The position numbers and the translations under genes were made by a program. A stretch of DNA of 64,000 bases from a virus (taxonomy: Duplodnaviria; Heunggongvirae; Uroviricota; Caudoviricetes): the IMG/VR virus record IMGVR_UViG_3300044846_005772. One strand, written 5' to 3'. Shown in pieces: positions 12,587-62,269 of this stretch. Numbering within the stretch: position 1 is the stretch's first letter; each line of letters begins with the position of its first letter. The notes under the pieces were generated by a model, which ran no database searches, had not been told where the DNA came from, and worked only from the letters and a program-made list of their open reading frames with translations.

Positions 12587-13030
12587 TTATTGATTTGATC
12601 CTGGTCCAAATCCAGTTCGATCATCACTAAATCTAACGCTAGATTTATCGATGTCTACATTGAATTTTTCATCTCCTAAATTTCTTCCCATTGCTCTTTG
12701 ATTCTTCTTAGCTGATACTTTATCTTGTTTACCGGCACGTTCAGCAGCATTGTTCATCATTTGGCCGACTAACTGTTGCTTCATCTTCTTCTTCCAATCG
12801 CTATGAAATATTAAATTCATTGCTCTTGTAATATCTACTTCCTCTATTTTTCCGTTATGTCTATTTGGATTTCTAACTGCCTTCTCATTAGCTATTTGCT
12901 GAGCTATTGCAAGAACTGAAGTATAAATGCCAGCAATAGCCGATTGTGCCATTCCAGTATAGTTGGTGACATACACTTGATTCTTCTTTTCAAAGATAAA
13001 ATCATCAAATGAATCTAAATGATCTTTCAT
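12587..13030 (-). CDS. hypothetical protein with N-terminal F-x-x-F-I-x-E motif
   Basis: N-terminus MKDHLDSFDDFIFE. Confidence 0.5.
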   Translation of the reverse strand: MKDHLDSFDDFIFEKKNQVYVTNYTGMAQSAIAGIYTSVLAIAQQIANEKAVRNPNRHNGKIEEVDITRAMNLIFHSDWKKKMKQQLVGQMMNNAAERAGKQDKVSAKKNQRAMGRNLGDEKFNVDIDKSSVRFSDDRTGFGPGSNQ

Positions 13031-13299
13031 TATGCAGTCGGTTGTATGTTTTTAGCGGCCTCTGCTTCAGCTGCTGCTTTTTGATTCTGTGCATTTACGC
13101 TAGCTGCTAATGCGTCATTATATTGCCTTTGAGCTTCTTGATATGCTTTATCCGCTAATGTTAATGCATTTTGAGCATTGTTCTTGGTAGTCAAAGCAGT
13201 TTCCATCTTCTGTTTCAAGCCTGCAATATCCCCTTCTCCGGTCGCCTGTTCGCTAACTTTCAAATTTTTAAAAGTATCATAGTCATTTAAGTATGCCAT
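13030..13299 (-). CDS. hypothetical Ala/Gln-rich coiled-coil protein
   Basis: ORF; start and stop overlap neighbours. Confidence 0.45.
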   Translation of the reverse strand: MAYLNDYDTFKNLKVSEQATGEGDIAGLKQKMETALTTKNNAQNALTLADKAYQEAQRQYNDALAASVNAQNQKAAAEAEAAKNIQPTA

Positions 13300-13547
13300 T
13301 ACTTGTTTATTTTTTTTAAAGCATTCATAAATTCCTTATAGCTTAATGCTTTCTTTTTTTTAGTAGCCTTTGGATTTCTTCCAAATGCGCTAACTGCTGG
13401 CGAACCTGCCAAGAATGGTGAATTATTCCAATGAGATGGCGGTTGACCTGACCCTCTAGCGTACATTGTGACTTTATTTGGTCTATAGTCATCTGGCTGA
13501 GGCAAAGAGTAATACTCGACTAGATATTGAGAAAAGTTCTTAGTCAT
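13299..13547 (-). CDS. hypothetical protein with N-terminal NFSQYLVE motif
   Basis: ORF. Confidence 0.45.
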   Translation of the reverse strand: MTKNFSQYLVEYYSLPQPDDYRPNKVTMYARGSGQPPSHWNNSPFLAGSPAVSAFGRNPKATKKKKALSYKEFMNALKKINK

Positions 13548-13912
13548 TATGCTCCAAATGTCGGTACGTTATATTCTTGATTAGGTGAACCTTGAGTAAA
13601 TTCTCCAAATGTTGGAACTGGCTCAGATAAAGTAGGTTCAGCTTGAGAAGTTGGCTCCATTGTAGGTTCCATTGTAGGCTCCATCACAGGCTCAGCTTCT
13701 GGGCTAAATGCAGTCATCACTGCAGGTTGCGCACAAATATCTGAAACTAATGTCTTTAATGAATCTAATTTATCAGATAAACTTGCGTCGTTTGCACAAC
13801 ATGCTTCGAGCTTTGTCATAAATTCAGAAAGTCCACAATTTGCAATTTCTTGAGAAAGTTCTGGCATTTCTACTGATTCATACATGCGATTCAATTTCTT
13901 ATAATTCTTCAT
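13547..13912 (-). CDS. hypothetical protein with EPTM tandem peptide repeats
   Basis: EPVMEPTMEPTMEPT repeat. Confidence 0.45.
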   Translation of the reverse strand: MKNYKKLNRMYESVEMPELSQEIANCGLSEFMTKLEACCANDASLSDKLDSLKTLVSDICAQPAVMTAFSPEAEPVMEPTMEPTMEPTSQAEPTLSEPVPTFGEFTQGSPNQEYNVPTFGA

Positions 13913-14149
13913 CTTTTACAGATCTTTTTTATTATTTATTCGAGATCGAAATCCAATTATCTAAGTATAAGATAACATGACAAAAGAACAAGAGTTATTA
14001 AAAAAAGAACTTAAGAAGGAGATACTTCAAAAGCTAGAAGCCATACAGAACTCAATAATTTCTGAAAAAGGAATAGACTCTCCTGAGTATTTTCAAATGT
14101 TAATAATGGTAGCCGACGATTTAGGTGATGTACTTCTTAATTGGGAAGA

Positions 14150-14758
14150 TTAAAATCCGTCTTGACTTCTCAAGTAAGCCGTCCTCAACGACATGTACGC
14201 ATCTTCCAAATTAGCTAAAACATACGGATGTTGTTTGTTATTCTTTCCTCGTTTAGAGACTAAGCCTTTCATAATCTCTGCCATTGTCATAATAGAATCA
14301 AGCTTTCGAGTAGGGCTTTCCATATGTTTTCTAAAAACTTCAGGGTCTTCGAAATCTTCTTCTGGTTCTTCCTCAAATCTACGATCTTTTGGAAACTCCA
14401 TTTCCATTTGATTTGGATTAGATCCGTATTCATATCTTTGGGCGCCTTCTGTATCTTGAGCTACACTAGCAGCTTGTTGAAAATCAAGATAGCTTTCATC
14501 CATTTTATTAATACGCATACGGATTTTAGCAATTTCGTCTTCAATTCTGTTTAATTCATCACCATATCTATTAGCATCGTCATCTGTCCAGTTTTCACCA
14601 GCCATTCCAGCTTCAGCTTCCATCTCAGCAAATACTTCTCTCATCTCATCTTTTAGATCAAGAATTCTTTCCTCAAGTTCTTGTCTTTTTGAAGTATGCT
14701 TTCTATTCTCATCTAATTTTGATGAAAAAGAATTAAAAGTATGTATGTGATTTTTCAT
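14150..14758 (-). CDS. hypothetical acidic coiled-coil protein, N-terminal FNSFSSKLDE motif
   Basis: ORF. Confidence 0.5.
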   Translation of the reverse strand: MKNHIHTFNSFSSKLDENRKHTSKRQELEERILDLKDEMREVFAEMEAEAGMAGENWTDDDANRYGDELNRIEDEIAKIRMRINKMDESYLDFQQAASVAQDTEGAQRYEYGSNPNQMEMEFPKDRRFEEEPEEDFEDPEVFRKHMESPTRKLDSIMTMAEIMKGLVSKRGKNNKQHPYVLANLEDAYMSLRTAYLRSQDGF

Positions 14759-14763
14759 ATCTC

Positions 14764-15384
14764 TTATTTTTTTAGGTGATTCATCAATACTCCACCCAAT
14801 GTTGCTGCACTAAATTTTAGTTCCTGAATAGTTGCATGTTCAAGTTCTTTCTTACGACCAGTATATTCAATTCCTAAAACCCCAATTATTCTACCTTCTG
14901 GGTTTTTTATAGCAAAGAGGTAAGAACTTCTAGTTCCATTTTCTTCAGCAATATATTTCAAGCCATATGTTGCAGTTTCCTCATCTCGATAGTCTGGAAT
15001 TATTACTTCTCCTGTTTTTACTATTTGCGATAGAGATTTACTAAAAAGATTAACTGGTATATTTTGGTATTGCAATCTAACTGAATCTTTTGCATGTCTA
15101 ACTACTTCAAAGAACATGCTAAATTTTTGTATTGATTTTCCAGTAGGATAATAGTGTCCTCCGTTATGAAATTGAAGTATCCATGCACGATCGACGCTCT
15201 TATCTGCAAGTATTCCATCTAACATTGAATTTACAACATCTGAATGCTCAACAGCTTCAGTTAACAAGTCTACTTTCTTATTATTCTTTTCCAAGTAAGA
15301 CTTTACAAATAGAATGAGAACTGGTCCTAAAACACCAGTAATAAAAGCAATACCAATCTCCATCATTTCCTTAGTTATCTGCAT
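14764..15384 (-). CDS. membrane-anchored hypothetical protein (206 aa)
   Basis: Single N-terminal hydrophobic helix. Confidence 0.5.
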   Translation of the reverse strand: MQITKEMMEIGIAFITGVLGPVLILFVKSYLEKNNKKVDLLTEAVEHSDVVNSMLDGILADKSVDRAWILQFHNGGHYYPTGKSIQKFSMFFEVVRHAKDSVRLQYQNIPVNLFSKSLSQIVKTGEVIIPDYRDEETATYGLKYIAEENGTRSSYLFAIKNPEGRIIGVLGIEYTGRKKELEHATIQELKFSAATLGGVLMNHLKK

Positions 15385-15394
15385 TATTTAAGGA

Positions 15395-15943
15395 TTACAT
15401 GTTGCAGCCACACTGCATGCCAAATTCTTGAGAATACCATGGATCCTCTTCAGGAACTTCTGCATCCATTGCTTTTTGAGTTCCGCAACTTGAACAAATT
15501 ACAATCGGACCAGCGTCCGCATATTCTTTATCAAGTAGTATAGAATCATCCATACAATCGTCGCAATCATCATACCTCTCCAGCAACCATTCTAAAGACT
15601 CATTTGTTTTTTTCTTAGGATTTGCTCCCATTTCTGGTTCAGGTGTCTCATCTTCTTCAGAAGACTCAGAAGATTCTGGTTTCTCTAGTTTAGTTGAATC
15701 AGCAGCTGATGAATTGAATTTAGGGGCTCCGTTTTCTCCAGGTTGAGGAGGAGTAGGCTCATCGCTAGTTGAGATAGGGCGATTTGGTTTTGGTTCAGGC
15801 GAACCATATGTTTCCTTATCGAAACCTTCTTTGAAATTATCTGCACTATGCGAGAATGTATCAAAGCTTGCAGCGGTATTTTGTTCAGAATCCTTCGAAA
15901 ATTTCGATGAGAATTCAGCAAAGTTTAAAACTCTTCCTGCCAT
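15395..15943 (-). CDS. Pro-rich protein with C-terminal Cys-rich zinc-finger-like domain; N-terminal NFAEFSSKF motif
   Basis: CDDCMDD...CSSCG...CGC cluster. Confidence 0.5.
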   Translation of the reverse strand: MAGRVLNFAEFSSKFSKDSEQNTAASFDTFSHSADNFKEGFDKETYGSPEPKPNRPISTSDEPTPPQPGENGAPKFNSSAADSTKLEKPESSESSEEDETPEPEMGANPKKKTNESLEWLLERYDDCDDCMDDSILLDKEYADAGPIVICSSCGTQKAMDAEVPEEDPWYSQEFGMQCGCNM

Positions 15944-15956: not shown

Positions 15957-16418
15957 TTATAAGTGATTTATTATGTTTATGAACGTGTCCATTAATTCAG
16001 GATCCATAATATCACCTGAATCTAGAGAATTAAAGTAAGCTATCAATTCCTTGTTAGTTAGAATCCAACGTCCCTGATCAGTCTTAGTGCAATAGTTCGT
16101 TAGTATACCTCCTCGGTATTCGCCTCCGTACCATCCATATTTAGCTTGCGTTAAGTTAGTAGCCCAATGGCCTCGATCGAATTTATGTTGATATTTCCCT
16201 CCCTTAACGTCTTCCACTATAAACTTTACAATATCTGTATATCTTATCCCTTCATACCCAGATTGATAAATTTTATGAAGTACTCTAAAAGTAATAGTTG
16301 GAACATCAGTAGAATCTTTAGGAACTCTAATCCTTTGTCTTGACCCTTCCTTAGGCTGTGTAGGAATGTATTTACTACTTTCCTTCAAAAATGAATTAAA
16401 ACTCGCAAAAGCAGACAT
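15957..16418 (-). CDS. hypothetical protein, N-terminal FNSFLKE motif
   Basis: ORF. Confidence 0.5.
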   Translation of the reverse strand: MSAFASFNSFLKESSKYIPTQPKEGSRQRIRVPKDSTDVPTITFRVLHKIYQSGYEGIRYTDIVKFIVEDVKGGKYQHKFDRGHWATNLTQAKYGWYGGEYRGGILTNYCTKTDQGRWILTNKELIAYFNSLDSGDIMDPELMDTFINIINHL

Positions 16419-16493
16419 AGTCGTTCTTTCTTTTTATTTATTTTAAGAGAGCTCTTAAAAATTGTATATTAGTAAAAACAAATAGAATAAAAT

Positions 16494-17100: not shown

Positions 17101-17258
17101 TGATTAACCTTGACCTGCGTAAGGTTTCTTGTACAACTTAGCATTCTTATTGCTTGACTGTTTAGTCTTAGCATGAATCCCAGGTCTCTTCTTCTTGGGT
17201 TTACTCTTGAATGCACTAGTTGTTTGTGTTTTAGTTTTGGCCATCTCTCTTATGCGGG

Positions 17259-17513
17259 TTATTTGTTAAACTTTCTAGACTTTTTAAAGGCTTTTTTCTT
17301 ATCCATTCCACCTGCTTTGTATTGAGCCATTTTAGCATCAGCGAAATCTGAATCTCCATCTCCATCCTGGTCAATTTTCTTAGTTGCTTTTTTAGCAGGT
17401 TTCTTTTTTGGCATCTTTACTTGAGTTTCTTCATCGGCGAAAAATTCATCCAAGTAATTCTTTTTGTTCTTTTTAGCTTCATTAACGAAACTATTGAAAT
17501 TGTGCAATTTCAT
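17259..17513 (-). CDS. small Lys-rich basic protein, N-terminal MKLHNFNSFVNE motif
   Basis: KKPAKKATKK stretch; candidate DNA-associated internal protein. Confidence 0.45.
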   Translation of the reverse strand: MKLHNFNSFVNEAKKNKKNYLDEFFADEETQVKMPKKKPAKKATKKIDQDGDGDSDFADAKMAQYKAGGMDKKKAFKKSRKFNK

Positions 17514-17523: not shown

Positions 17524-17787
17524 TTATTTTTTCAAGTCATGTGACCAACTTTCATACGTATGAATTCGACCATTAATTCCATGGTGAGTTAGTGTATTTT
17601 GAGTGTATGAAAGCATAAATTCAGTAACTTCCTGCAAGTCATCTTTGCTTGTTGCAATATGGTCTTCTGCCCATGCATGCTCTTGTAAAATAGCGTCTAA
17701 TTGGTTCGGGTTGATTCGTCTTAGCTCTTCAATGTGTCTAGCCATCGAATCAAGGTTTGACAAGAACATTTGTGTAGATTCGGTCAT
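17524..17787 (-). CDS. hypothetical protein (87 aa)
   Basis: ORF. Confidence 0.45.
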   Translation of the reverse strand: MTESTQMFLSNLDSMARHIEELRRINPNQLDAILQEHAWAEDHIATSKDDLQEVTEFMLSYTQNTLTHHGINGRIHTYESWSHDLKK

Positions 17788-18707
17788 TATTTTTTAGTAG
17801 TTTTTTTAATAGCTTCCTCAACTGCTTTATGGATCTCAACCAATACATTCTTAATCTTTGCGATCTGCTCAGATTTTGATTCATTAACTCCACTGGCATT
17901 CATTAAATTCTTAGCTAAAGTTAATCTCTTATGCAAAGTAGAATCCTTTTTTCCAAGTTGAAGACCTTTTTTCTTAGGGTCTTTGTCCTTTTTCTTTAAT
18001 TTTTTCTCAGCCTTTTCAATATCTGCAAACGTAAGATCGTCATCTCCTAATTGTTTTTTAAGAGCGCCTTTCTTCATATCAATATCTTTAATCCATTGCT
18101 TATTTTTCTTAGCTTCTTGAACCGCCATGAAAGCATCAAATGTTGCTATCTTGCCTTCTGTTGCTATTCCCGGTAAAAGTTCAGCATCTGTTGGAATTTC
18201 ACTAGGTTCATTCATCATTGGCTCAGAAGGTTGAGCTTGCATTTCAGGCTGAGCAGTTGTTTGAATTCCCTGTTGAGCAACATTAATTTTAACAGGAGTC
18301 AATTGTCCGTTTACGTCAGCTACTGCTGCTTTTGAAGGATCATCTGGCGCTCTTAAGATTAAGTCGATCAATTGTTTTCCAGAAGCTAATTCATCAATTT
18401 GAGCGGAGGTTAAAGGAAGAATATATGAATCACTAACTGCCTCCGCATTCATTGAAACAGTAGGAACATCCTCATCAAAGTATACTTTGATTGTTTTTGA
18501 TTGTTTCTTAGCGTCTGACTGATTAGGATCTATTGCATACACTACTAATGAATCATCGACACTTTGGAATTCATTCTTTAAGTTAGCAATATTTTGAGCA
18601 GATATTTGTAAGTTCAAGTTTACTCCATTTTGTAATGCAAGATCTTGTGCAGTTTGTTGAATTGCTGCATCTTCGTATATCTTATTAAAATTTAGGTATT
18701 TGTACAT
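17787..18707 (-). CDS. hypothetical protein (306 aa), Lys-rich C-terminus
   Basis: ORF. Confidence 0.5.
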   Translation of the reverse strand: MYKYLNFNKIYEDAAIQQTAQDLALQNGVNLNLQISAQNIANLKNEFQSVDDSLVVYAIDPNQSDAKKQSKTIKVYFDEDVPTVSMNAEAVSDSYILPLTSAQIDELASGKQLIDLILRAPDDPSKAAVADVNGQLTPVKINVAQQGIQTTAQPEMQAQPSEPMMNEPSEIPTDAELLPGIATEGKIATFDAFMAVQEAKKNKQWIKDIDMKKGALKKQLGDDDLTFADIEKAEKKLKKKDKDPKKKGLQLGKKDSTLHKRLTLAKNLMNASGVNESKSEQIAKIKNVLVEIHKAVEEAIKKTTKK

Positions 18708-18726
18708 CCTATTTTCTTTTTTTTAT

Positions 18727-19461
18727 TTATTCTTCGTAGATTAATCGATACGCATCCTGCTGAGCGTTTATGATCTTCTCTATTGAACCGTCTCGTCGTA
18801 ATTCCTTGAAAGCTAGATTCTCTATTGAAAATTCTCCATCTTTCGCAAGACCTTCCTTGCGATCGTTTTGTATCTTTTTTCTAAATCTACCAATATAGTC
18901 ATATAATTCTTGAGCTTCTTCTGAATCTGCCTTCTTGAGGCGATCCATGATCTCAGACATCTCTGATTTAATTACTCTCACCTTTTCAGTAACGTCCCTC
19001 TCGTCGACCTTAGGTTCTTTCCAGGTAGGCGTAATTATCCACTGATTCTTAAGTATTGAAAATAGACCCGACGCTACGTGTTGTTCGTCTTTATGTTGAA
19101 CATAACATTCAACATCATGTCCTCTTAATTGAAGAGCATGGCGTTGGTTCCAGATAAACCTCTGACCGTCCAATGCTTTTCTAACAAGATCCTGATCTTG
19201 ATTGATTTGTCCAAAATCAATTATAAGGTGCACATCTAAGTCAGATGCATTCGTCCAATTGTAATTTGCTAGGGAACCGGTCAATTGAATATCATATAAT
19301 TCAATATCTAGCTTTAATGATTCCCAAAAATCATTTGCAATTGCAAGCAACTTTTCTCTAAGTGCTTCATCCATTTGCATGTTATTCCATACCTTTGGAC
19401 AGAGTTCACGGTGATATTCTACTTTCTCTGAGATGAATTTTGAAAAGCTATGTAATTTCAT
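18727..19461 (-). CDS. minimal nucleotidyltransferase-fold protein (pol-beta/CD-NTase-like signature), N-terminal MKLHSFSKFISE motif
   Basis: GS-x10-SDLDVHLIID fits the [GS]x9-13Dx[DE] signature. Confidence 0.45.
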   Translation of the reverse strand: MKLHSFSKFISEKVEYHRELCPKVWNNMQMDEALREKLLAIANDFWESLKLDIELYDIQLTGSLANYNWTNASDLDVHLIIDFGQINQDQDLVRKALDGQRFIWNQRHALQLRGHDVECYVQHKDEQHVASGLFSILKNQWIITPTWKEPKVDERDVTEKVRVIKSEMSEIMDRLKKADSEEAQELYDYIGRFRKKIQNDRKEGLAKDGEFSIENLAFKELRRDGSIEKIINAQQDAYRLIYEE

Positions 19462-19488
19462 GATATTATTTATTTAAGATCAGCAGTA

Positions 19489-20262
19489 TTATGCGAATCC
19501 TACTAAATTTGCTATCTTTTTGCCACCTTGTGCAACTAAGCTATTTCCACTATTTACTCTTGCATCTAACACAACTTGAACAAGCTGGTCAGTTACCTTT
19601 ATTCCAGATTTAACTGCATCATTTAGTTTATTAGCAAATTTCTGGAACCATCCACTTCCGTTCCACGTAGCATATATGAAATTAAATAGAAGACGGCCGT
19701 CTGAATTTACTAGAGCTAATGCTTCTGGTGAAAGATATTTTTGAGCAAGCCTTTCATATTCGGGCTTAATTATTTGCGCAGCTAATTCCAATAGTCTGGG
19801 TTGAATTGCAGAAGGTCCCTTTTCTCCCCATTTCCAAGTAGATCTAGCGTTTTGAGAATCAATAGTTTCCCAGAATTCTTTAGCTGCTGGCGTCTTGTAT
19901 TCATAGCTATCTAAATACTGCAGATCATCGATTGGATCTTTACCCTTTCTAGGAGTAGAGTAATATAGACCATGTCCTGCAAATCTATCTAATCCATACA
20001 TAGTTTCACCGCTTCCGGAATAACGAGTATCTTTTACACGACCGTCCTTCAACATATCTGGATGGTAATAACCTCCTTCAAGCTTTGCTATAACAAGCTT
20101 AGTTATTTCTATGAAGTCAGTTAAATCTTTTGAAACAGCTGCAGTAGATAAGCTTGGGCTCCATTGATTTATTGCATTAAATGAAGGAGTTCCAGACTTC
20201 ATTTCTAAAGTATTATCCGGAACTAGTGTATTCAAGTATTTTACTATTTTCTCAAGAACCAA
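19489..20262 (-). CDS. peptidoglycan hydrolase, GH108-like lysozyme
   Basis: LEGGYYHPDM and GSGETMYGLD resemble the GH108 EGGY motif. Confidence 0.5.
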   Translation of the reverse strand: MVLEKIVKYLNTLVPDNTLEMKSGTPSFNAINQWSPSLSTAAVSKDLTDFIEITKLVIAKLEGGYYHPDMLKDGRVKDTRYSGSGETMYGLDRFAGHGLYYSTPRKGKDPIDDLQYLDSYEYKTPAAKEFWETIDSQNARSTWKWGEKGPSAIQPRLLELAAQIIKPEYERLAQKYLSPEALALVNSDGRLLFNFIYATWNGSGWFQKFANKLNDAVKSGIKVTDQLVQVVLDARVNSGNSLVAQGGKKIANLVGFA

Positions 20263-49953: not shown

Positions 49954-49970
49954 CCTCTGATTATGATAGG

Positions 49971-53905: not shown

Positions 53906-54080
53906 GGACCTTGCGTAAAGCCTTGAGCTTGTTCTCGGAATCCTCGCTCTTCTCGCCTACCTTGTCTGGCCAGCTAGATATAGTAGAATACACAAGCTCC
54001 ATGAACTTGTCCTCGTCCTGAGCTCGCAGCTGCATCAAGCGCTGAATCAGGTCAGGATCCTTGAATGGGTCGAACTTCAT
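53820..54080 (-). CDS. hypothetical protein (86 aa)
   Basis: ORF; ATGA overlap with the upstream gene. Confidence 0.45.
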   Translation of the reverse strand: MKFDPFKDPDLIQRLMQLRAQDEDKFMELVYSTISSWPDKVGEKSEDSENKLKALRKVREHYEQKENYERCAVLFNMEKKIDGKEG

Positions 54081-54388: not shown

Positions 54389-54402
54389 CTTACTTATATT
54401 AG

Positions 54403-55116: not shown

Positions 55117-55228
55117 ATGTTTTTTTTGAGTTAGTTATAAAGCTAATGTAAACTGATAATTTTAAAAAGTACAACGTTTGCGAAACTATTTTTCCTGCAC
55201 GGTGGGGAGTACAAGTTAGCCGTGCAGG
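55117..55228 (-). promoter_or_regulatory. early-promoter module copy 2 (variant A) + hairpin
   Basis: aaaagtacaacgtttgcgaaa...tttcctgcacgg-17 nt-ccgtgcagg. Confidence 0.6.
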
Positions 55229-55233
55229 AATGA

Positions 55234-55413
55234 TTACATATGTTTCATAGCATTGTGCTTGGCTTCTAACACCTTAGCGTAATGTTCCCAGTTTACGTAA
55301 TTTACATCGTATCCTTCGTTAATCATCTTAGCACGACGGGTTTCCACCATCTTGGAAAAATTGATTCTTGTGCTTGCAGACAAGCGATCAAAGATATTCT
55401 TAAACATTTTCAT
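55234..55413 (-). CDS. small protein (59 aa), not in ORF track
   Basis: ATG directly after a module; translation MKMFKNIFDRLS...; stop placed by hand count. Confidence 0.35.
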   Translation of the reverse strand: MKMFKNIFDRLSASTRINFSKMVETRRAKMINEGYDVNYVNWEHYAKVLEAKHNAMKHM

Positions 55414-55494
55414 AGTTATTAGTTTAGAGTTAAGTAAATATAAAATGAAAAAATGGAAAAGTACAACGTTTCTTAAATTAAATTTCCTGCACGG
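55414..55494 (-). promoter_or_regulatory. early-promoter module copy 3 (variant A)
   Basis: tagagttaagtaaatataaaatgaaaaaatggaaaagtacaacgtttcttaaattaaatttcctgcacgg. Confidence 0.55.
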
Positions 55495-55650
55495 TCAAGC
55501 TTGGTCCTGCTCCTCGGCTGCGCTCGTGCGTGAGTTTAGGTTGCGAGACGTGCAGCGCCAGCAAGTAACAGCTGTTGCTTTATCATCTACTTTGTCTACC
55601 TTCTCCCCACAGATTTTACAGTTTAGGGATTTAAAGCTTTTGCTCTTCAT
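55495..55650 (-). CDS. small zinc-ribbon protein (51 aa), not in ORF track
   Basis: MKSKSFKSLNCKICGEK...CWRCTSRN (CxxC...CxxC). Confidence 0.35.
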   Translation of the reverse strand: MKSKSFKSLNCKICGEKVDKVDDKATAVTCWRCTSRNLNSRTSAAEEQDQA

Positions 55651-55675
55651 GGATTATTGATTATTTTTTATACAC

Positions 55676-55710
55676 AAAAAAGGGAGAAGATGTATTACAC
55701 CCTCTCCCTC
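55676..55710 (-). terminator. rho-independent terminator
   Basis: gggaga-15 nt loop-tctccc with an A-run on the + strand (T-run in gene sense). Confidence 0.55.
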
Positions 55711-55729
55711 AATCTGTTCCAAACTTGGA

Positions 55730-55951
55730 TTACGCAGTGATCTTGCGGCGACCTACCATTTTGTAAGCTGCGTTTACGATCTCGTTGCTTGGGTTGTTGC
55801 TCTCTCCTCTGAGAACGCGAGCCACATGCGACTTGTCATAGCCAGTTCTTACTGCTAATTCTGCGATGTCGCCACGACGTAGGCGAACTGATACTGCTGC
55901 TCTCTTCTCATTTACTGAAGTAGAGCTTTTCATTGTTGCTGTTTTCTTCAT
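55730..55951 (-). CDS. small putative DNA-binding (HTH-like) protein
   Basis: GDIAELAVRTGYDKSHVARVLRG helix-turn-helix-like segment. Confidence 0.4.
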   Translation of the reverse strand: MKKTATMKSSTSVNEKRAAVSVRLRRGDIAELAVRTGYDKSHVARVLRGESNNPSNEIVNAAYKMVGRRKITA

Positions 55952-56081
55952 AATACTTAAATAGTTAATGTATTATCTTATACTACAACAAGTTAAAAGG
56001 TTTTACTACGGAGTAGATAATTTTCTATTTTCCGGGCCAGGTAAAGAACATGTTTAACTATCAGTTTACTACGGAGTAACC

Positions 56082-56255
56082 TTAGTCTTCCTGGGAATAG
56101 CGATACTTCTTACGACTATACGCTCGTGGGTTGGGTTCGCTGCGCTGCCTGAACCTGCCGTCTAGGGCTCCTTGTTCCAGCATCTGCTGGCGCTGTGCTG
56201 TACGGGCAGCCGCTACTTGATTCCAACTTCCAGTTATTTTAATCTTGCGTTTCAT
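56082..56255 (-). CDS. small basic protein (57 aa), not in ORF track
   Basis: MKRKIKITGSW...; last gene of a three-gene operon. Confidence 0.3.
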   Translation of the reverse strand: MKRKIKITGSWNQVAAARTAQRQQMLEQGALDGRFRQRSEPNPRAYSRKKYRYSQED

Positions 56256-56266
56256 GATACACTTAT

Positions 56267-56491
56267 TTATTCTCCAGTTACTAGTATCTCGTCACCACCG
56301 ACTATGACAGTTGTACCTAGGATATCGTCGATAAAGAGAATCTCGCCTGATTCTGTCTCGAACAGGAAGTCATCGCTCCATTCAGCACCATCCATCTCTC
56401 TAAAAAGATTCGCGATTTCTTCCGGTTCGCCGTAGACCTGCTCGTGCCCCCAGTTATCTAGGGTTTCAGTTATCTTGATTATCTTGTGCAT
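56267..56491 (-). CDS. hypothetical acidic protein (74 aa)
   Basis: ORF. Confidence 0.45.
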   Translation of the reverse strand: MHKIIKITETLDNWGHEQVYGEPEEIANLFREMDGAEWSDDFLFETESGEILFIDDILGTTVIVGGDEILVTGE

Positions 56492-56492
56492 A

Positions 56493-56762
56493 TCAATTAG
56501 TTGTTTGGGTTACTACTAATATTAATGCCTCCTGACCCGAACTCAACGAGCGCCATGCTCCTTTTTCCAGGTCAAAGAATCTTACGCTCGCGTCGGTTGA
56601 TGTACCATTACCATTGGGTCGTAATGTTTCCGGAATCATGGAAAGATTCACGGTTCCCACCGCCGTGCGTAAAGTGCCATCCAACTTGCGGAAGGCAAAT
56701 GTTACTGCACCTTCTCTGAGTCTTGCTCTTAGTGCGTCCTTGCTGATTTCTTGAAATACCAT
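56493..56762 (-). CDS. hypothetical protein (89 aa)
   Basis: ORF directly downstream of a module. Confidence 0.45.
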   Translation of the reverse strand: MVFQEISKDALRARLREGAVTFAFRKLDGTLRTAVGTVNLSMIPETLRPNGNGTSTDASVRFFDLEKGAWRSLSSGQEALILVVTQTTN

Positions 56763-56924
56763 ACTTATATTGTTTAGAAGTTATAAGTAAATATAAACTG
56801 ATAATTTTAAAAAGTACAACGTTTTTGAAAATAAGTTTCCTGCACGGACTCCACCCGGCAAGCATGGGATCCCGGCCCGTGCAGGAGAGACCTCATGAAA
56901 AAAGGGACCGAAGTCCCTTTAGTC
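56763..56924 (-). promoter_or_regulatory. complete module copy 4: promoter (variant A) + CCTGCACGG-29 nt-CCGTGCAGG hairpin + GGGAC-CGAA-GTCCC terminator
   Basis: Read directly. Confidence 0.7.
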
Positions 56925-56943
56925 AAGTTATGTAAGATATACA

Positions 56944-57243
56944 TTATACTAACTCCTTCACCGATTCCAGATACTTCTCGATCTTCTTGAGATAGCTGAC
57001 AGCTGATCGCTTGTCCGGAAAGTATGCCCACATCTGACAGGATTCGGAATCCCAAGTAATGTTCTCCGGACTTCCGACCTTCTCCTTCAGGTGATCTTCA
57101 ACATCGTACGCGCTCCCATAGTCTCGGAAGCGGTATTCAGGTTTTGGCGAGCCAGTTAGTGACCAGCTCTTACCGTTGTTAGAGTAGCCGTCGTTGTAGA
57201 TAACGAATCCGGTCTTTGAAACGATTTCTTCTTGTTTTTTCAT
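56944..57243 (-). CDS. hypothetical protein (99 aa; start corrected to MKKQEE)
   Basis: The track extension translates the module. Confidence 0.45.
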   Translation of the reverse strand: MKKQEEIVSKTGFVIYNDGYSNNGKSWSLTGSPKPEYRFRDYGSAYDVEDHLKEKVGSPENITWDSESCQMWAYFPDKRSAVSYLKKIEKYLESVKELV

Positions 57244-57328
57244 GACTATATTATTTAGAGTTATAGTGTAAATATAACACGACTCTAGTAAATTGGTACT
57301 CACAAGTGAAACTATTCTTCCTGCACGG
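57244..57328 (-). promoter_or_regulatory. module copy 5 (variant B: gtaaattggtactcacaagtgaaactattcttcctgcacgg)
   Basis: Read directly; left hairpin arm only. Confidence 0.55.
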
Positions 57329-57348
57329 TCGCTCCCCGACAAGCTTCT

Positions 57349-57615
57349 TTACTCCTCCCCTTCAGGAAAGAGCTTAGCCCAGCCAGCTGGAGAAATGCCG
57401 GAGATCACGAACTCTCTATTCTCTGCGGGCTCGTTTCCCAAGCAAGTATAGATTCTTTCTCCTAGGCAGAATCTGCGCAGACCTTCGGTTGGCATCTCGC
57501 ATTCCCATTCCTTGCCAGTAATTACGCATTTACCCCAAACTCGTGAGTGAGTCTCATTGATTGGGGTGTAGAATCTCTCATCCACGAGAGATAGGGGATA
57601 ATCTTTATTTTCCAT
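57349..57615 (-). CDS. hypothetical protein (88 aa)
   Basis: ORF. Confidence 0.45.
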   Translation of the reverse strand: MENKDYPLSLVDERFYTPINETHSRVWGKCVITGKEWECEMPTEGLRRFCLGERIYTCLGNEPAENREFVISGISPAGWAKLFPEGEE

Positions 57616-57790
57616 GTTTAATTGTTTCTTTTGGTTGGCCTATTGTGTCGTCGTCAAATGCAGGTTCCAAAGTTGTTGGGTCTACCCATACTGAATCCTG
57701 CATGGAAGTTTCTCGTGAAATCCCGGGCTTGTCGAGGGGCACGCTCGTGCAGGAAGCAAGTATAATTGACAGTGTAATAATTCTAATCAT
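57605..57790 (-). CDS. small lipoprotein (61 aa)
   Basis: MIRIITLSIILASC lipobox. Confidence 0.4.
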   Translation of the reverse strand: MIRIITLSIILASCTSVPLDKPGISRETSMQDSVWVDPTTLEPAFDDDTIGQPKETIKHGK

Positions 57791-57824
57791 AAGATAATAA
57801 TACTAAATAATCAAGCTAATTAAA

Positions 57825-57849
57825 AGAAAAATGGGAACTAACGTTCCCA
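57825..57849 (-). terminator. rho-independent terminator
   Basis: tgggaac-taac-gttccca with A-run upstream on the + strand. Confidence 0.6.
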
Positions 57850-57889
57850 TCCTCTTAACTCTAAAACATATATAACTAATCAACAAACA

Positions 57890-58243
57890 TTAGTTCCAGG
57901 TAATCTCGGCTCGATTTGCCTTGATCTTGATCTCAGCTCCTTCCTTCAAGGTAACTGATCCGAATGGGGTGTTCATCGTCCATGCAGGAGCAGATGCAGT
58001 AGTTACTGATCTTTTGCGTGGGGCACGACTTACTTTTGTTGTCTCTTTATATTCTACAATCAAACCCGCTTTCTTCATCTTGCTGATGTGTGAATACACG
58101 GTTTGGCGAGAGACTTTTAGAAGGTCTGCGATTACAGGAGCTTTTACACCTGTTCCGACCATGATTGCGATTTGACGGCGAGCGTCTTCAACTTGAGCAC
58201 GAGTGCTGCGATTTCTTCTTGTTTGATTAGTAATTTTTTTCAT
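57890..58243 (-). CDS. HTH transcriptional regulator-like protein
   Basis: VIADLLKVSRQTVYSHISKMKKAGLI helix-turn-helix. Confidence 0.5.
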   Translation of the reverse strand: MKKITNQTRRNRSTRAQVEDARRQIAIMVGTGVKAPVIADLLKVSRQTVYSHISKMKKAGLIVEYKETTKVSRAPRKRSVTTASAPAWTMNTPFGSVTLKEGAEIKIKANRAEITWN

Positions 58244-58311
58244 GACTTTAAATTATGAATTAAATATACTATAGTTTCTCACCAGATTAAAATAAATTTA
58301 CTACGGAGTAG

Positions 58312-58845
58312 CTATATTTCATCCTCTTCTTCAAAAGCTTCGTCAAGATCGGCCTGCCCTGAAGCTGAATATCCTTCTTCCAAGATGTTGTATAATCTGT
58401 GGCACTCGTCGATTCTCCATTTCTCGGTGGCCGCTTGGATTCCGTCCAACAACTCGTCGGTCAGGTCCTCATGCTCCTCGCTATCGATGTTCATGCTACA
58501 CGTCATCTCGTGAGAGTATCGACTTGTGCTGCGCTCCGACGAGATAAGAAGATTCTCAAACAGGAGTTCCAACAACTTCTCCATCTCCTCATCCATCGGC
58601 AGGACCTTATGTAAATTGTATCTAGCTGTGAACTCTCGCGGATCTATCGACGAGCCTTCGCCCTTCCAATACTCGCTCTCAATTAAATACGTAAGAAATT
58701 GCTTGTTTACGACATCGCGTGCATCAAAGGTAAAGCTTGCGCCGTCACCTTGGCTCCAAAAGCCCGTGAACTGCACGTCGTCTACATCCACGCCTACCAT
58801 AAACATGGTTGCTTTAAAGTCAGTGATGTATTCATCGTACCACAT
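58312..58845 (-). CDS. acidic hypothetical protein (possible DNA-mimic/anti-restriction-like)
   Basis: Strongly acidic, DEAFEEEDEI C-terminus; no family assigned. Confidence 0.45.
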   Translation of the reverse strand: MWYDEYITDFKATMFMVGVDVDDVQFTGFWSQGDGASFTFDARDVVNKQFLTYLIESEYWKGEGSSIDPREFTARYNLHKVLPMDEEMEKLLELLFENLLISSERSTSRYSHEMTCSMNIDSEEHEDLTDELLDGIQAATEKWRIDECHRLYNILEEGYSASGQADLDEAFEEEDEI

Positions 58846-59006
58846 AGTTATATTGTTTAGAAGTTATGAGTAAATATAAAACGATAATCTTAAAAAGTAC
58901 AACGTTTCCGAAACTAAATTTCCTGCACGGCCGAGATCCCGGTTTTGGGGCGGCCGACCATGCAGGAGAGCTCACAAAGAAAAAGGGACGCAAGGCCCCT
59001 TCATCA
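58846..59006 (-). promoter_or_regulatory. module copy 6 (variant A) + hairpin (cctgcacgg/ccatgcagg) + imperfect GGGAC terminator
   Basis: Read directly. Confidence 0.65.
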
Positions 59007-59021
59007 GTAAAGCCAATTAGA

Positions 59022-59435
59022 CTATTCCTTCAACGCATCAATCACTCTCATTGGCATCTTAGAGGATCCATACGCAGCCGCAACCAACCACTCTCCTTCC
59101 TGTGTGAATAGGTAGCCGAACTCCTCAATATCTCCCTTAAAGAATTCTAGCACTGACTTGTGCGTTTGCTGGCTAAACTCCTCACCACGATCCCGGTGGT
59201 ACGCGACAGTAACGCCACCTTCTGGGTTAGAGAAGTTGTGAGGTCCACTAGGCTCTAGTCTCTCTTGCAGGGAACTTAGACTTCCCAACGCGATTAGGGC
59301 CTTCACCTTTTCAGGGGTGTTGTAATGGTCTATTAAAGTTTGACCATTGTGAGATGGGTAGCCATCCCAGTGACAGTAGATAGAAACGACGGTCTTGTCT
59401 TCCATCTCCATTGCGATTCTTGAGCGTGTTGCCAT
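59022..59435 (-). CDS. hypothetical protein (137 aa; start corrected to MATRSR)
   Basis: The track extension translates the module. Confidence 0.45.
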   Translation of the reverse strand: MATRSRIAMEMEDKTVVSIYCHWDGYPSHNGQTLIDHYNTPEKVKALIALGSLSSLQERLEPSGPHNFSNPEGGVTVAYHRDRGEEFSQQTHKSVLEFFKGDIEEFGYLFTQEGEWLVAAAYGSSKMPMRVIDALKE

Positions 59436-59596
59436 AGTTATTATTATTTTAGAATTATAGAGTAAATATAAAATGAAAAAATGGAAAAGTACAACGTTTG
59501 CGAAACTATTTTTCCTGCACGGGCACTTTCCCGGCCTAGCACGGATTACAGCCCGTACAGGAGTGCTCACAAGAAAAAAGGGACCAAAGTCCCTTT
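59436..59596 (-). promoter_or_regulatory. module copy 7 (variant A) + hairpin + GGGACC-AAA-GTCCC terminator
   Basis: Read directly. Confidence 0.65.
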
Positions 59597-59617
59597 TCAA
59601 TATATTACTATTAAGAA

Positions 59618-60289
59618 TTACAGAGCAAGTCTTCTATTAAGATCAGATCTTCTAATATAGATGTATGGGAAATCCCAGTTTGCACCATTCCATTCTGCTA
59701 CTTTGACAGTTCCACCATCCTTAGTTGGGCACTCATGAAGATCTATTTGATTGCTTCCAGGAGATCCTGACCAAACTTCATCTTGCCAAATTTCCTTACT
59801 GTTACAGCTTGACATCTTAGCATAGTATTCATTAAACTCCCAACCTTCATCATTAGCAAGATCAGGATGACCTACTATGATAGGATCATAATCATCATTC
59901 CAATCAATTAAGCAAACAATATCTTCTGGGCTTGCACCAAGAGTATCAGCAATAGCTCTGAAACCTGATTTAACTGATTCGATTTCATCATCTTCAGCAT
60001 CAGGTCCAAGGTTTTGAATAGCCTCTTCCTCATTTTCGATCAAGTTTTGAAGATCTAAAAAATCAGTATCAACTTGGATTGATTGTGGATTATCAATATC
60101 ATTAGCATCAACCTCAAATGTTCCATTCTTTGAACACCCAATTGTATACATAGCTTTTCCACTTTTAGAAAAATACACATTATCTATTCTACAGGTATCA
60201 CCATCAAAGAAATCAACATAATCACCTATTGAGAATTTGTGTGAGTTACTTTCATTTAAGAAGTTTTCAAATGTTTGTAAATGTTTCAT
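59618..60289 (-). CDS. hypothetical protein with N-terminal MKHLQTFENFLNE motif
   Basis: ORF. Confidence 0.5.
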   Translation of the reverse strand: MKHLQTFENFLNESNSHKFSIGDYVDFFDGDTCRIDNVYFSKSGKAMYTIGCSKNGTFEVDANDIDNPQSIQVDTDFLDLQNLIENEEEAIQNLGPDAEDDEIESVKSGFRAIADTLGASPEDIVCLIDWNDDYDPIIVGHPDLANDEGWEFNEYYAKMSSCNSKEIWQDEVWSGSPGSNQIDLHECPTKDGGTVKVAEWNGANWDFPYIYIRRSDLNRRLAL

Positions 60290-60472
60290 ACTTAATTTTT
60301 TAGTTATTTATTTTTTAGTTATAGAGTAAATATAATATGACTTCTGTAAATTGGTACTCACAAGTGAAACTATTCTTCCTGCACGGGCGGAGTAGTGCAG
60401 ATGTCAAGCAACTGAAACAATTGCGACCGTGCAGGAGAGACCTCATGAAAAAAGGGACTCATCGTCCCTTTT
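60290..60472 (-). promoter_or_regulatory. module copy 8 (variant B) + CCTGCACGG-40 nt-CCGTGCAGG hairpin + GGGAC-TCATC-GTCCC terminator
   Basis: Read directly. Confidence 0.7.
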
Positions 60473-60496
60473 CCATTACTACGGAGTAGCCCGTTT

Positions 60497-60895
60497 CTAC
60501 TCCTCGTTCTGGACAAACGCCTTATGTCCCCAGTGAGTGGCTCCTACGAAAGCATACTGGTGCTGATTGTACAGGTTGGTGTTGTACCATTTATCGTTGA
60601 TGTCTCCCACCGTGATTTGAGAGAGCAACTGCTCATCCGCAATCACAACCTTCTTGCCCTTCATCGCAAACACGGTTAACCAGAAATCAAAGCCGTCCTC
60701 GTCGGGCTGGAACTGAATCGTCTGGATCGTTCCTTTCTTATAGGCTCTGAATACATGGTACACATCTCGTTCCATGCAATCAACTGCCGTTAGAAAGCCT
60801 GCCTTGACCTTGATGATCGCTCTGAACTTGCCTGAGCGACCTTTGATTTGGTTGACCGCATTGATGTCGCGAATTAATACTTTTAAATTTTTCAT
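60497..60895 (-). CDS. hypothetical protein (132 aa; start corrected to MKNLKV)
   Basis: The track extension translates the module. Confidence 0.45.
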   Translation of the reverse strand: MKNLKVLIRDINAVNQIKGRSGKFRAIIKVKAGFLTAVDCMERDVYHVFRAYKKGTIQTIQFQPDEDGFDFWLTVFAMKGKKVVIADEQLLSQITVGDINDKWYNTNLYNQHQYAFVGATHWGHKAFVQNEE

Positions 60896-61054
60896 GTCTT
60901 TATTTTTTAGAGTTAAGTAAATATAACACGATAATCTTAAAAAGTACAACGTTTCCGAAATTAAATTTCCTGCACGGGCTCTCCCCGGCTAGCAGGCCAG
61001 CAAACACCGTGCAGGAGAGCTCACAAGAAAAAAGGGACCGGTTTGGTCCCTTTA
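60896..61054 (-). promoter_or_regulatory. module copy 9 (variant A) + hairpin + GGGACC-GGTTT-GGTCCC terminator
   Basis: Read directly. Confidence 0.7.
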
Positions 61055-61072
61055 CTGTTACTACGGAGTAAG

Positions 61073-61279
61073 CTAATCCTGCCCGTCCAAGAAGTCTAGG
61101 ATCTCTTCCACCTCTGCTGGATCGTCCACTTCGTACCCGTCCTTGGTTCTAACTTCCGTGTCAATGATCTTGTCGCGCTCATCATAGTAATCCTTTACGA
61201 CCACTACTGATCCTGAATCGAGCTGCACACGGCTTTCGACCATCTTAACCACCTGCGTTGTCTTGCTTAGTAATTCCAT
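61073..61279 (-). CDS. hypothetical acidic protein (68 aa)
   Basis: ORF. Confidence 0.4.
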   Translation of the reverse strand: MELLSKTTQVVKMVESRVQLDSGSVVVVKDYYDERDKIIDTEVRTKDGYEVDDPAEVEEILDFLDGQD

Positions 61280-61303
61280 GTTGATTAGTTTAATTGGTTA
61301 TTA

Positions 61304-61528
61304 TTATCTTTCAAGTATCACGAACGATCCAAATTCTCGATCAAACACCTTGATCAGGTTCTCGTAATCGGATGACATCATCTCGGCATTGATTTCTCCT
61401 CTCTTCTTTGGATCCCAGCCAAGTTGCTTGCCAAAGTCGTTTGCCATGCCGAGTAGCACGAACGCGTTTCCGTCGGGCCCAGTCAGGTCAATCACGATCT
61501 GCTTGTTCTCTTGCTTTTTTCTAATCAT
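61304..61528 (-). CDS. hypothetical protein (74 aa)
   Basis: ORF. Confidence 0.4.
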   Translation of the reverse strand: MIRKKQENKQIVIDLTGPDGNAFVLLGMANDFGKQLGWDPKKRGEINAEMMSSDYENLIKVFDREFGSFVILER

Positions 61529-61683
61529 ATCGCGTGCATGTTAGAGATTATTACTTCTGCCTCCTCAAGGCTTTTTACAGGGATGAGTTGGCCCGCACCC
61601 ACAACGTAATGTCCGTCCCATATGGTAAGGGTTCGTGGAGGCCCGCTTGTGTCGATGGTGATCCCATCAGAAAATCTTAGCAT
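61525..61683 (-). CDS. small hypothetical protein (52 aa; start corrected to MLRFSDG)
   Basis: The track extension translates the module. Confidence 0.35.
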   Translation of the reverse strand: MLRFSDGITIDTSGPPRTLTIWDGHYVVGAGQLIPVKSLEEAEVIISNMHAI

Positions 61684-61843
61684 AGTTATGTTGTTTAGAA
61701 TTATAGAGTAAATATAAACTGAAATAATTAAAAAGTACAACGTTTTTGAAATTAAATTTCGTGTACGGTCGTTCCAAGACAAGCTTGCCGGGAGACGCCG
61801 TGCAGGAGTACTCACCCTAAAAAAGGGACCAAAGTCCCTTTTT
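61684..61843 (-). promoter_or_regulatory. module copy 10 (variant A) + degenerate hairpin + GGGACC-AAA-GTCCC terminator
   Basis: Read directly. Confidence 0.65.
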
Positions 61844-61846
61844 CAA

Positions 61847-62269
61847 TTAGTCAATAGTTAGCATGAATGCGGTGCCGTCCCAATCGTCCGGTATTTCTAT
61901 CTCATCAAGCTCCTTCACAAACTTCTCTGCTGTCTTAATAAGTTGTTCACGGGTATTAACCTTAGATATATTAAAGAAAATTATCTTGTCATTGACTGAT
62001 GAATACAACTCAAGATCGGGACCAGTGTCTGCATCTCCATCTACCGTACGTGATACTTTACTTCCCTGTTCCGCGTCATTTGCGAACTTTAGGATTCTTT
62101 CTGCGACTCCACGCAACTTTGATAATGAATCGATTTCGCCAAGATCAATCTTCTTTGTGGATTTGCCTGCCGTAATCTCAAGATAGTCATGAGATATTTC
62201 ATTAACAAACTCATTTCCTCTGTGTCCTTCATTAATAAATTCTGAAAAATTCTTAATTTCCATTGTCAT
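61847..62269 (-). CDS. hypothetical protein with N-terminal KNFSEFINE motif
   Basis: ORF. Confidence 0.5.
   Translation of the reverse strand: MTMEIKNFSEFINEGHRGNEFVNEISHDYLEITAGKSTKKIDLGEIDSLSKLRGVAERILKFANDAEQGSKVSRTVDGDADTGPDLELYSSVNDKIIFFNISKVNTREQLIKTAEKFVKELDEIEIPDDWDGTAFMLTID

Follow-up and report, generated by a model that had tools for sequence, protein, structure and literature searches.

An N-terminal heptad shared by many proteins of an uncultured T4-like phage resembles the capsid-targeting and prohead-processing signal of T4

Proteins that are injected together with phage DNA act before phage gene expression, and in T4 they include the anti-restriction and host-takeover factors IPI* and Alt. 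The capsid-targeting sequence (CTS) of T4 has been experimentally defined as MKTYQEFIAE (PMC8442874), and this 10-residue peptide alone suffices to load foreign proteins into heads (PMC8442874; PMC5694885). The propeptide of T4 gp23 is 65 residues long, and T4-type and related prohead proteases prefer to cut after Glu (PMC5694885). In the phiKZ-like giant phages (SPN3US, phiKZ and 201phi2-1), a prohead protease related to that of T4 also cuts head-internal proteins after Glu, and a role in directing proteins to the prohead has been suggested for the propeptides (PMC5694885). Here we analyze a 64,000-nt stretch of viral DNA (IMG/VR record IMGVR_UViG_3300044846_005772, hereafter the window), in which a short N-terminal motif is shared by otherwise unrelated proteins. 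This tag is best read as a propeptide of ~11-20 residues with one amphipathic heptad, [FY]-x-x-[FY]-[LIV]-x-E. It is likely to be a cleavable capsid-targeting propeptide of the T4 type that mimics one repeat of the scaffold, with the tagged cargo being packaged together with the DNA and injected. The phiKZ-like propeptides are mostly longer than 100 residues, with A/S/G-x-E sites and an S80-type protease, whereas the window tags are short and T4-like.

The tag in the window and its counterpart in T4

An earlier note on this DNA had claimed that at least 11 proteins carry the pattern F-x-x-F-[LIV]-x-E at their N-termini. All 11 open reading frames (ORFs) were found on the minus strand at the positions it gave and with the N-termini it described; for 61847-62269 the ORF and its tag were borne out, with the start (MTMEIKNF) being placed 2 residues upstream of the Met previously proposed. 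In a crude gene set of 111 non-overlapping window ORFs, called from first-ATG starts only, the strict motif (F..[FY][LIVF].E, starting within the first 12 residues) is N-terminal in eight genes, in comparison with a single match in 17,864 internal positions (~70-fold enrichment, Fisher p = 4.5e-9). It is found in none of 79 shadow ORFs. When N-termini were scored with a leave-one-out position-specific scoring matrix (PSSM), the eight strict members reached 9.7-20.5 bits, where the 99.9th percentile of internal positions is 5.9 bits and the best unclaimed N-terminus among the window genes has 6.5 bits. The pattern holds strictly for these eight of the claimed proteins and nearly so for 14150-14758, whereas 15395-15943 and 17787-18707 carry looser variants only. 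These two are not significant on the window alone (2.6 bits for the former, whereas the latter is not among the 26 top scores listed, which all reach at least 1.0 bit). Orthologues on two related contigs nevertheless keep the variant forms, LNF.EFS.K.S and F.F.KIYE, respectively. An equal frequency in cytoplasmic enzymes, which the earlier note had named as a refutation, was not observed: no annotated replication or metabolic enzyme lies above the 99.9th-percentile threshold. Additional candidates are 906-1115, 13030-13299 and two proteins (MSFYKNESKRNVLSFSSFIFE and MSYLVNYSTFKKLFEQ) encoded immediately beyond the left end of the window, on a contig that overlaps it. The tagged genes and candidates of the window, together with the probable continuation of the first gene, are the following.

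20312-21229, minus strand: CHAP peptidoglycan peptidase; MLKSFSQYLKE, predicted cut after E11; strict motif, 20.5 bits
19489-20262, minus strand: probably the rest of the CHAP gene, out of frame with 20312-21229 in the window
18727-19461, minus strand: tagged nucleotidyltransferase of the Pol-beta superfamily; MKLHSFSKFISE, predicted cut after E12
17787-18707, minus strand: 306-aa protein; variant tag MYKYLNFNKIYE, loose motif only; no Pfam or PHROG match
17259-17513, minus strand: small Lys-rich basic protein (mature part 31% K+R, isoelectric point (pI) 9.8); MKLHNFNSFVNE; strict motif, 18.0 bits
15957-16418, minus strand: 153-aa protein; MSAFASFNSFLKE; strict motif, 12.9 bits
15395-15943, minus strand: 182-aa Cys-containing protein (6 Cys in the mature part); variant tag MAGRVLNFAEFSSKFSKDSE, 2.6 bits
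14150-14758, minus strand: acidic 202-aa protein; variant tag MKNHIHTFNSFSSKLDE, loose motif, 9.2 bits, which exceeds the 99.9th percentile for internal positions
13299-13547, minus strand: small basic protein (mature pI 10.2); MTKNFSQYLVE; strict motif, 11.4 bits
13030-13299, minus strand: possible diverged tag MAYLNDYDTFKNLKVSE; weak, PSSM 2.1 bits
12587-13030, minus strand: basic 147-aa protein; MKDHLDSFDDFIFE; strict motif, 12.6 bits
59618-60289, minus strand: acidic 223-aa protein of the early region; MKHLQTFENFLNE; strict motif, 9.7 bits
61847-62269, minus strand: acidic 140-aa protein of the early region; MTMEIKNFSEFINE; strict motif, 13.3 bits
906-1115, minus strand: extra candidate, acidic, 69 aa; MNDPKLLGFKEFVKVNE; loose motif, 5.2 bits, just below the 99.9th percentile

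Most of the cargo proteins show no detectable homology to one another or to known families, and Pfam and PHROG searches yielded annotations for the nucleotidyltransferase and the CHAP enzyme and for no other tagged protein. The tag is conserved: syntenic relatives retain it on the orthologues of 12587, 15395, 17259 and 17787 while the flanking residues change. Orthologues of 17787-18707 start with MHKYFNFSKIYEAE and MHRFIDYRKIFEAE, those of 15395-15943 with MPGRVLNFLEFSDKYS and MPGRILNFSEFFGKYS, and that of 17259-17513 with MNKIYTFAEFINEAKK; the orthologues of 12587-13030 in ~10 IMG/VR contigs start with M[EK]R[KN]I[KQ][TS]Y.Q[FY]I[NT]E[SA]TKEVVYP. The N-terminus of 13030-13299 resembles MSYIKNFKGFQKAEE from a related syntenic contig and MSYLVNYSTFKKLFEQ from the overlapping contig on the left. 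The conserved positions are encoded by varied codons (TTT/TTC, GAA/GAG and CTA/TTG/TTA/ATC/ATT/GTT), and selection is thus on the peptide rather than on the RNA.

In 150 kb of T4 (232 crude genes), the same regular expression has four N-terminal matches, namely IPII, IPIII, the CTS-like gp61.1 and, at 61.4, what appears to be a mis-start. The hypothetical protein gp61.1 (54 aa; 18966-19130 of the retrieved stretch) starts with MKTFKEFIKE, a near-copy of the CTS. With a relaxed heptad (h..h[LIV].E), matches were found at the following T4 positions.

T4 IPII and IPIII, residues 4-10: YQEFIAE
T4 Alt, residues 4-10: ITELFDE
T4 gp24, residues 4-10: INELLRE
T4 gp23, residues 59-65: FGSFLTE

Because the gp23 heptad ends at Glu65, in agreement with the reported 65-residue propeptide, the window motif corresponds to the processing heptad of the T4 prohead protease, placed in the CTS position. 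FGSFLTE, the gp23 maturation site of gp21 (Peptidase_S77), fits F-x-x-F-[LIV]-x-E exactly, though it is internal, at the end of the propeptide, whereas the window heptad lies within the first 20 residues. The CTS itself fits [FY]..[FYW][LIVF].E, and these matches to the CTS and to the relaxed heptads sustain the likeness to a T4 capsid-targeting and prohead-protease signal on which the earlier note had remarked. In both phages an N-terminal peptide of ~10-20 residues is common to otherwise unrelated proteins, with YQEFIAE in T4 against F-x-x-[FY]-[LIV]-x-E in the window, and gp21 cuts after the [LI]-x-E end in T4 (PMC5694885, PMC3012670). Enzymes, such as Alt in T4, are found beside small basic proteins both in the T4 cargo and in the cargo predicted here, and the window also has T4-type portal and head-completion genes. 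The differences are that the first aromatic residue in the window is F, not Y, that the distance from Met to Glu is 11-20 residues, that the cargo is acidic as often as basic and that ~9-14 tagged proteins occur in 64-70 kb, in comparison with 3-4 in 150 kb of T4 by the same regular expression; moreover, cleavage and packaging in the uncultured window phage are predictions.

The nucleotidyltransferase (18727-19461) matches phrog_36119 (E = 9.5e-37), with a weak match to PF22600, and has 913 metagenome homologues. In nearly all of the best 120 of these 913, F..[WF][LIV].E stands just before the conserved VEYH.ELCPK, and W (TGG) is often found at the second aromatic position in the orthologues; E12 is invariant in the family and F6 is conserved in > 90%. 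Since only first-ATG starts were called and many nucleotidyltransferase genes begin with TTG or GTG, the tag counts in relatives are underestimates. In an AlphaFold model built with 42 homologues, the mean predicted local distance difference test score (pLDDT) is 87, and values under 50 coincide exactly with residues 1-11, a short helix that does not pack on the fold. The tag in this model looks as would be expected of a conserved linear docking and cleavage motif, and the predicted cut site should be accessible. A fold search with the model gave weak Pol-beta-fold matches and no specific function.

The CHAP ORF (20312-21229) matches Pfam CHAP (E = 1.3e-5) and a PHROG endolysin, and its CHAP domain also matches the PHROG baseplate hub and tail lysozyme (E = 3.8e-5). 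The N-terminus reads MKRIK[LN]F[ET]SFIKE in the seven homologues nearest to it, whereas the tag is absent from ~45 more distant homologues of the CHAP+PG_binding_1 type. Because it is present on the nearest homologues yet missing from the distant ones, the tag is a modular, portable element. The ORF is probably the front part of a longer CHAP gene. JGI sample 3300059473 provides another assembly of this phage, and on its 26.7-kb contig one ORF of 586 aa, just upstream of the nucleotidyltransferase gene, takes the place of both CHAP-region ORFs, 20312-21229 and 19489-20262, which are in different frames in the window. The split reading frame is either a frameshift in the window or strain variation.

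Head genes of the window and scaffold repeats in its relatives

On sequence grounds, the window is part of a T4-like phage related to the huge "Mahaphage" genomes. The T4-type portal and the head-completion and neck proteins (gp4, gp13) are present, and the window also encodes UvsW-like and PhoH-like proteins.

7651-9354, plus strand: T4-type portal; PF07230 Portal_T4; phrog_213, E = 2e-58; T4 gp20 by tblastn, E = 1e-20
6466-6969, plus strand: gp4-like head-closure protein; phrog_218, E = 7e-47; T4 gp4 by tblastn, E = 1e-26
11847-12581, minus strand: gp13-like neck protein, untagged; phrog_211 head-tail adaptor; downstream end of the tagged operon
11464-11841, minus strand: gp25-like protein of the baseplate wedge; its gene closes the same strand block

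A syntenic 244-aa orthologue of the gp13-like protein on a related contig matches PF26809 Phage_T4_gp13, and the matches of the gp25-like protein are weak (phrog_43, E = 3e-4; PF04965 GPW_gp25, E = 3e-3; T4 gp25 by tblastn, E = 0.08). By portal, the nearest public genomes are LR756500 (462 kb, 40% identity), LR756504, LR745206 and LR756501 (735 kb), and the next relatives after these huge uncultured phages are the Lak phages and Tenacibaculum phage PTm1. No near-identical DNA was found among cultured or deposited phages, where distant blastn matches concern metabolic genes only; the window sequence recurs in JGI and SRA assemblies. The starts lack Shine-Dalgarno sequences and have A-rich leaders, from which we infer a host of the Bacteroidota type.

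The earlier note had proposed that the rest of the genome be searched for a prohead protease. None was found in the window or in its 6-kb left flank; in the nearest relatives, a protease of the S77 type is present. The protein encoded after the portal in LR756500 has 632 aa and a Peptidase_S77 domain, and a gp23-like protein comes next; Peptidase_S77 is located beside or near the portal in LR756500, LR756501, LR745206 and PTm1. The 632-aa protein has 5,021 database homologues. The best 120 of these are protease-scaffold fusions of 560-670 aa with PF03420 Peptidase_S77, many of them also with PF20034 Peptidase_S80, and together they contain 821 copies of [FYW]..[FYW][LIVFM].[ED]. The density of the heptad per 600 aa in these 120 fusions is 11.3 after residue 230 and 0.15 in the protease domain, against 0.41 in the window genes. 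The copies show an exact 14-residue spacing with the consensus Y-S-E-Y-[LIV]-A-E-N-[LV]-D-K-[NS]-I-x. Spacing is also mostly an exact 14 residues in the scaffold fusions of LR756501 (807 aa, 15 copies; 8843-11266 of the retrieved stretch) and LR745206 (707 aa, 11 copies; 12384-14507 of the retrieved stretch). The tag corresponds to the first half of one scaffold repeat, and the likeness ends at the Glu, which is the predicted cut site.

Tags and scaffolds occur in the same genomes. Near the nucleotidyltransferase homologues of LR756501 and LR745206, N-terminal tags were found as MNNLINFEDFTLNE, MKVIKFSDYLKE, MIKKYGQFLNE, MTRIRKFLQFLDE and MKHLTQFFDYIKE. A DNA pattern of three consecutive repeat units is present in at least 120 IMG/VR stretches, and among the scaffold-adjacent genes of these loci the heptad is 4.7x commoner N-terminally than internally (examples of tagged scaffold neighbours are MKRVKSYNEFIAE, MKLKTYTEFINE and MKNKHIQTFESFLNE). 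Tagged proteins of ~370 aa beside the IMG/VR scaffolds were considered as gp24 or capsid proteins and rejected, with no recognisable homology being found. The fusion of an S77 protease to a tandem-repeat scaffold (up to ~15 repeats, YSEYLAENLDKNIx) is widespread in uncultured viral contigs.

The huge-phage fusions (LR756500, LR756501, LR745206 and those in IMG/VR) share with the window phage the nearest portal relationship, the same heptad and tagged N-termini, but they are the presumed partner for binding and cleavage and not tagged cargo. The fusion in PTm1 differs in having another repeat with no matches to the regular expression. In T4, the scaffold gp22 has only one match to the relaxed heptad, a point against the proposed reading; mimicry of the scaffold rests for this reason on the huge-phage relatives and is not established for T4. 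More generally, we tentatively propose that the tag is a single copy of the 14-residue repeat of the scaffold, such that any protein gaining an N-terminal [FY]xx[FY][LIV]xE would be co-assembled, trimmed and injected, across a large uncultured T4-related clade with many huge members, in which the repeat is fused to the prohead protease; this wider proposal is somewhat less probable than not to hold in full. If it is true, the motif would be a sequence-only handle on the injected-protein arsenals of thousands of uncultured phages, among which there might be anti-defence enzymes as well as cell-wall peptidases and nucleotidyltransferases. It would also account for where the CTS of T4 came from, YQEFIAE being almost identical to the scaffold repeat YSEYIAE.

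Operon context and the possible roles of the tag

Nine of the 11 claimed tagged genes lie in one minus-strand block, which begins at 21229 and has the gp13-like and gp25-like genes at its other end. The heptamer ATAAATA occurs 29 times in the window, and in 16 cases a start on the same strand follows after 5-45 nt. Four tagged genes of the block are preceded by it (20312-21229 at 32 nt, 18727-19461 at 12 nt, 17787-18707 at 23 nt and 15957-16418 at 23 nt), and so are the gp4/portal operon (6190) and the large fibre-like genes 36104 and 39476. The late promoter of T4 is TATAAATA, which ATAAATA resembles, and the heptamer is on this basis a putative late promoter element.

21255-21261, minus strand: ATAAATA, similar to a late promoter, in front of the first gene of the tagged operon
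19467-19473, 18724-18730, 16435-16441, 13933-13939 and 60305-60311: further copies of ATAAATA

The two right-arm tagged genes had been described in the earlier note as early. Both do lie behind early-type elements, and the description needs to be qualified for 59618-60289, which has an early-type -10-like element as well as the late-type ATAAATA at 22 nt; 61847-62269 has a full early-type element and no ATAAATA. A parallel is found in T4, where the gene of the CTS-like gp61.1 is also in the early region, among replication genes. Small genes on the minus strand of 51000-64000 have in front of them at least 11 copies of a conserved ~60-nt upstream element (..GAAACGTTGTACTTTTTAA..ATTATC.GTTTATATTTACTCTATAACT..), for instance ahead of 52362, 55116, 56762, 58845, 59435, 60895, 61683, 62269 and 63646. 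This array presumably represents early promoters, and the element is absent from the left arm. Within the tagged operon there is also an untagged, extremely basic ORF of 46 aa (17104-17244, minus strand; MAKTKTQTTSAFKSKPKKKRPGIHAKTKQS..), which may be a DNA-condensing internal peptide.

If the tag is a capsid-targeting propeptide, its action could be pictured as follows. Most tagged genes would be expressed late from the single minus-strand block. The heptad would copy one scaffold repeat, and the tagged protein would thereby bind the core and co-assemble with it inside the prohead, the shell closing around the core. A Peptidase_S77 of the T4 gp21 type, which the window phage would have to encode together with a scaffold, would then cut after the Glu, so that the scaffold is dismantled and the tag removed. 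The mature cargo would stay in the head with the DNA and enter the next host at infection; by this account it would comprise the CHAP cell-wall peptidase, the nucleotidyltransferase of the Pol-beta type, small basic proteins and several unknowns.

Several results weigh against this interpretation. The window and the 6 kb to its left contain no prohead protease, scaffold or major capsid gene, and four approaches recovered no protease, scaffold or capsid genes for the window phage. Searches by tblastn with T4 gp21, gp22, gp23, gp24, gp67, gp68 and the internal proteins gave no match in the window and its left flank. As for the four approaches, extension along overlapping contigs added only 6 kb, on the left; the longest contigs in the match lists of the nucleotidyltransferase and of the protease show no agreement in length; IMG/VR contigs with the nucleotidyltransferase and those with the scaffold-repeat DNA pattern do not overlap among the matches listed; and a metagenome contig scan with a flanking 524-aa protein gave no match. 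The 212-aa ORF that follows the portal (10234-10872) is equal to gp21 in length, but it matched nothing in profile searches and was rejected as a candidate. Moreover, two tagged genes are located in the early-promoter region on the right arm, one of them (61847-62269) without a late motif, and three of the 11 claimed members (14150, 15395 and 17787) fit the motif loosely, as weak variants. The mature pI of the cargo ranges from 4.1 to 10.2, whereas T4 internal proteins are uniformly basic. It is also worth considering that the tag abuts the core of the nucleotidyltransferase and is nearly universal there, and it could in that protein be a fixed functional N-terminus, which makes cleavage uncertain.

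The alternative that fares best is that the tag, unrelated to the capsid, stays on the proteins as an N-terminal helix with which they dock to some other common partner; a phage chaperone, a host factor and a system for targeting to membranes or compartments would be candidates, and the tag could also be a degradation signal. A short, conserved and disordered motif would suit any partner, two tagged genes are in the early region, and in Maribacter phage Molly a different N-terminal motif marks genes that are located among NUDIX and ribonucleotide reductase genes and not among structural ones. However, this alternative leaves unexplained the match to the T4 CTS and to the processing heptads of gp23, gp24 and Alt, the tandem heptads in the protease-fused scaffolds of the relatives, and the late-operon context beside the gp13-like and gp25-like genes; we regard it as unlikely.

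Nor do we think it probable, to about the same degree, that the tag is a propeptide removed by the prohead protease or another protease for activation or maturation only, without capsid targeting, in which case the location would be determined in some other way and some members such as the CHAP protein could be parts of the tail or baseplate. It is true that the [LIV]-x-E ending agrees with the preference of prohead proteases for cutting after Glu (PMC5694885), that the tagged operon ends in neck and baseplate genes and that the CHAP domain matches the PHROG baseplate hub and tail lysozyme. Nevertheless, T4-type prohead proteases work inside the prohead, so that their substrates must be there. 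Two aromatic positions are kept beyond [LIV]-x-E and copy the scaffold repeat, which suggests binding in addition to cleavage. In T4, moreover, the 10-residue CTS is enough for head loading (PMC8442874; PMC5694885).

Lastly, it is hardly conceivable that the likeness arises at the level of mRNA or composition (an AT-rich 5' coding sequence that helps translation to start where Shine-Dalgarno sequences are lacking and enriches F, N, K, I and E codons) or from the spread of one 5' segment by recent duplications: the left arm is indeed AT-rich (GC 0.33-0.37), Shine-Dalgarno sequences are lacking and the residues involved have AT-rich codons, but such an artefact is strongly disfavoured by the synonymous and conservative codon variation at every conserved position and by the shadow-ORF control (0/79), and it disagrees with the position-specific spacing, the single internal match, the frequent W (TGG) at the second aromatic position in orthologues and the presence of the heptad internally and in tandem in scaffolds.

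Capsid targeting by a cleavable propeptide is a type of system known from T4, and the predicted cargo set in the window is unusually large and diverse. If the tag works as in T4, ~12 candidate injected proteins, most of unknown function, would be present in this uncultured phage. The motif and its link to the scaffold repeat would also provide a simple rule for predicting packaged cargo in metagenomic T4-related genomes, and the tag is suggested as a portable means of loading foreign proteins into such capsids. A literature search, which cannot prove absence, found no description of such a system for Bacteroidota-type or huge T4-related phages and none of a link between a CTS and a tandem-repeat scaffold; the scaffold-repeat link is possibly a new insight.

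Other features of the window and of a cultured phage

A different N-terminal motif, K[ST]L[VI]ES, was observed in at least six proteins of Maribacter phage Molly_1 (MT732451; 13131-22383 of the retrieved stretch), whose N-termini are MNLKTLVETDKS, MNLKSLVESNKP, MKPEEIKSLVESENS, MKTTELKSLIESESS, MKDNEVKALVESEKT and MKTGKIKTLIESTKDA; one of these proteins is a homologue of the window nucleotidyltransferase. In this cultured phage, the motif appears to be a tag that is specific to the lineage and follows the same logic.

A second common N-terminus (MSFINWGHETPEQKEIRK..), unrelated to the tag, is shared by three minus-strand genes of the window, 36104-38158, 38869-39459 and 39476-41209, two of which are large and have ATAAATA upstream. 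A possible role of the three proteins is as alternative fibres or receptor-binding proteins that attach through the same domain.

The GC content rises from 0.33-0.37 in the left arm to 0.43-0.53 in 44000-64000, with a peak at 48000-52000. The rise begins beside three tRNA genes (43991-44065, 46404-46482 and 47503-47590), and the GC-rich part, which includes a gene for a DnaB/RecA-like ATPase (51220-52362), may represent either an early region that has evolved in a different way or an island that was acquired.

In the left arm, the ORF of a family-B DNA polymerase (3601-5025) covers positions 500-840 of the 856 in the PHROG profile, that is, the C-terminal half; the polymerase thus seems to be split, with the N-terminal exonuclease half encoded elsewhere. 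A gene for a SET-domain protein (9418-9804) directly follows the portal. A nicotinamide phosphoribosyltransferase-like gene (33110-34630) is followed by an ORF of 292 aa (region 33110-35513), and the two may be a pair for NAD salvage.

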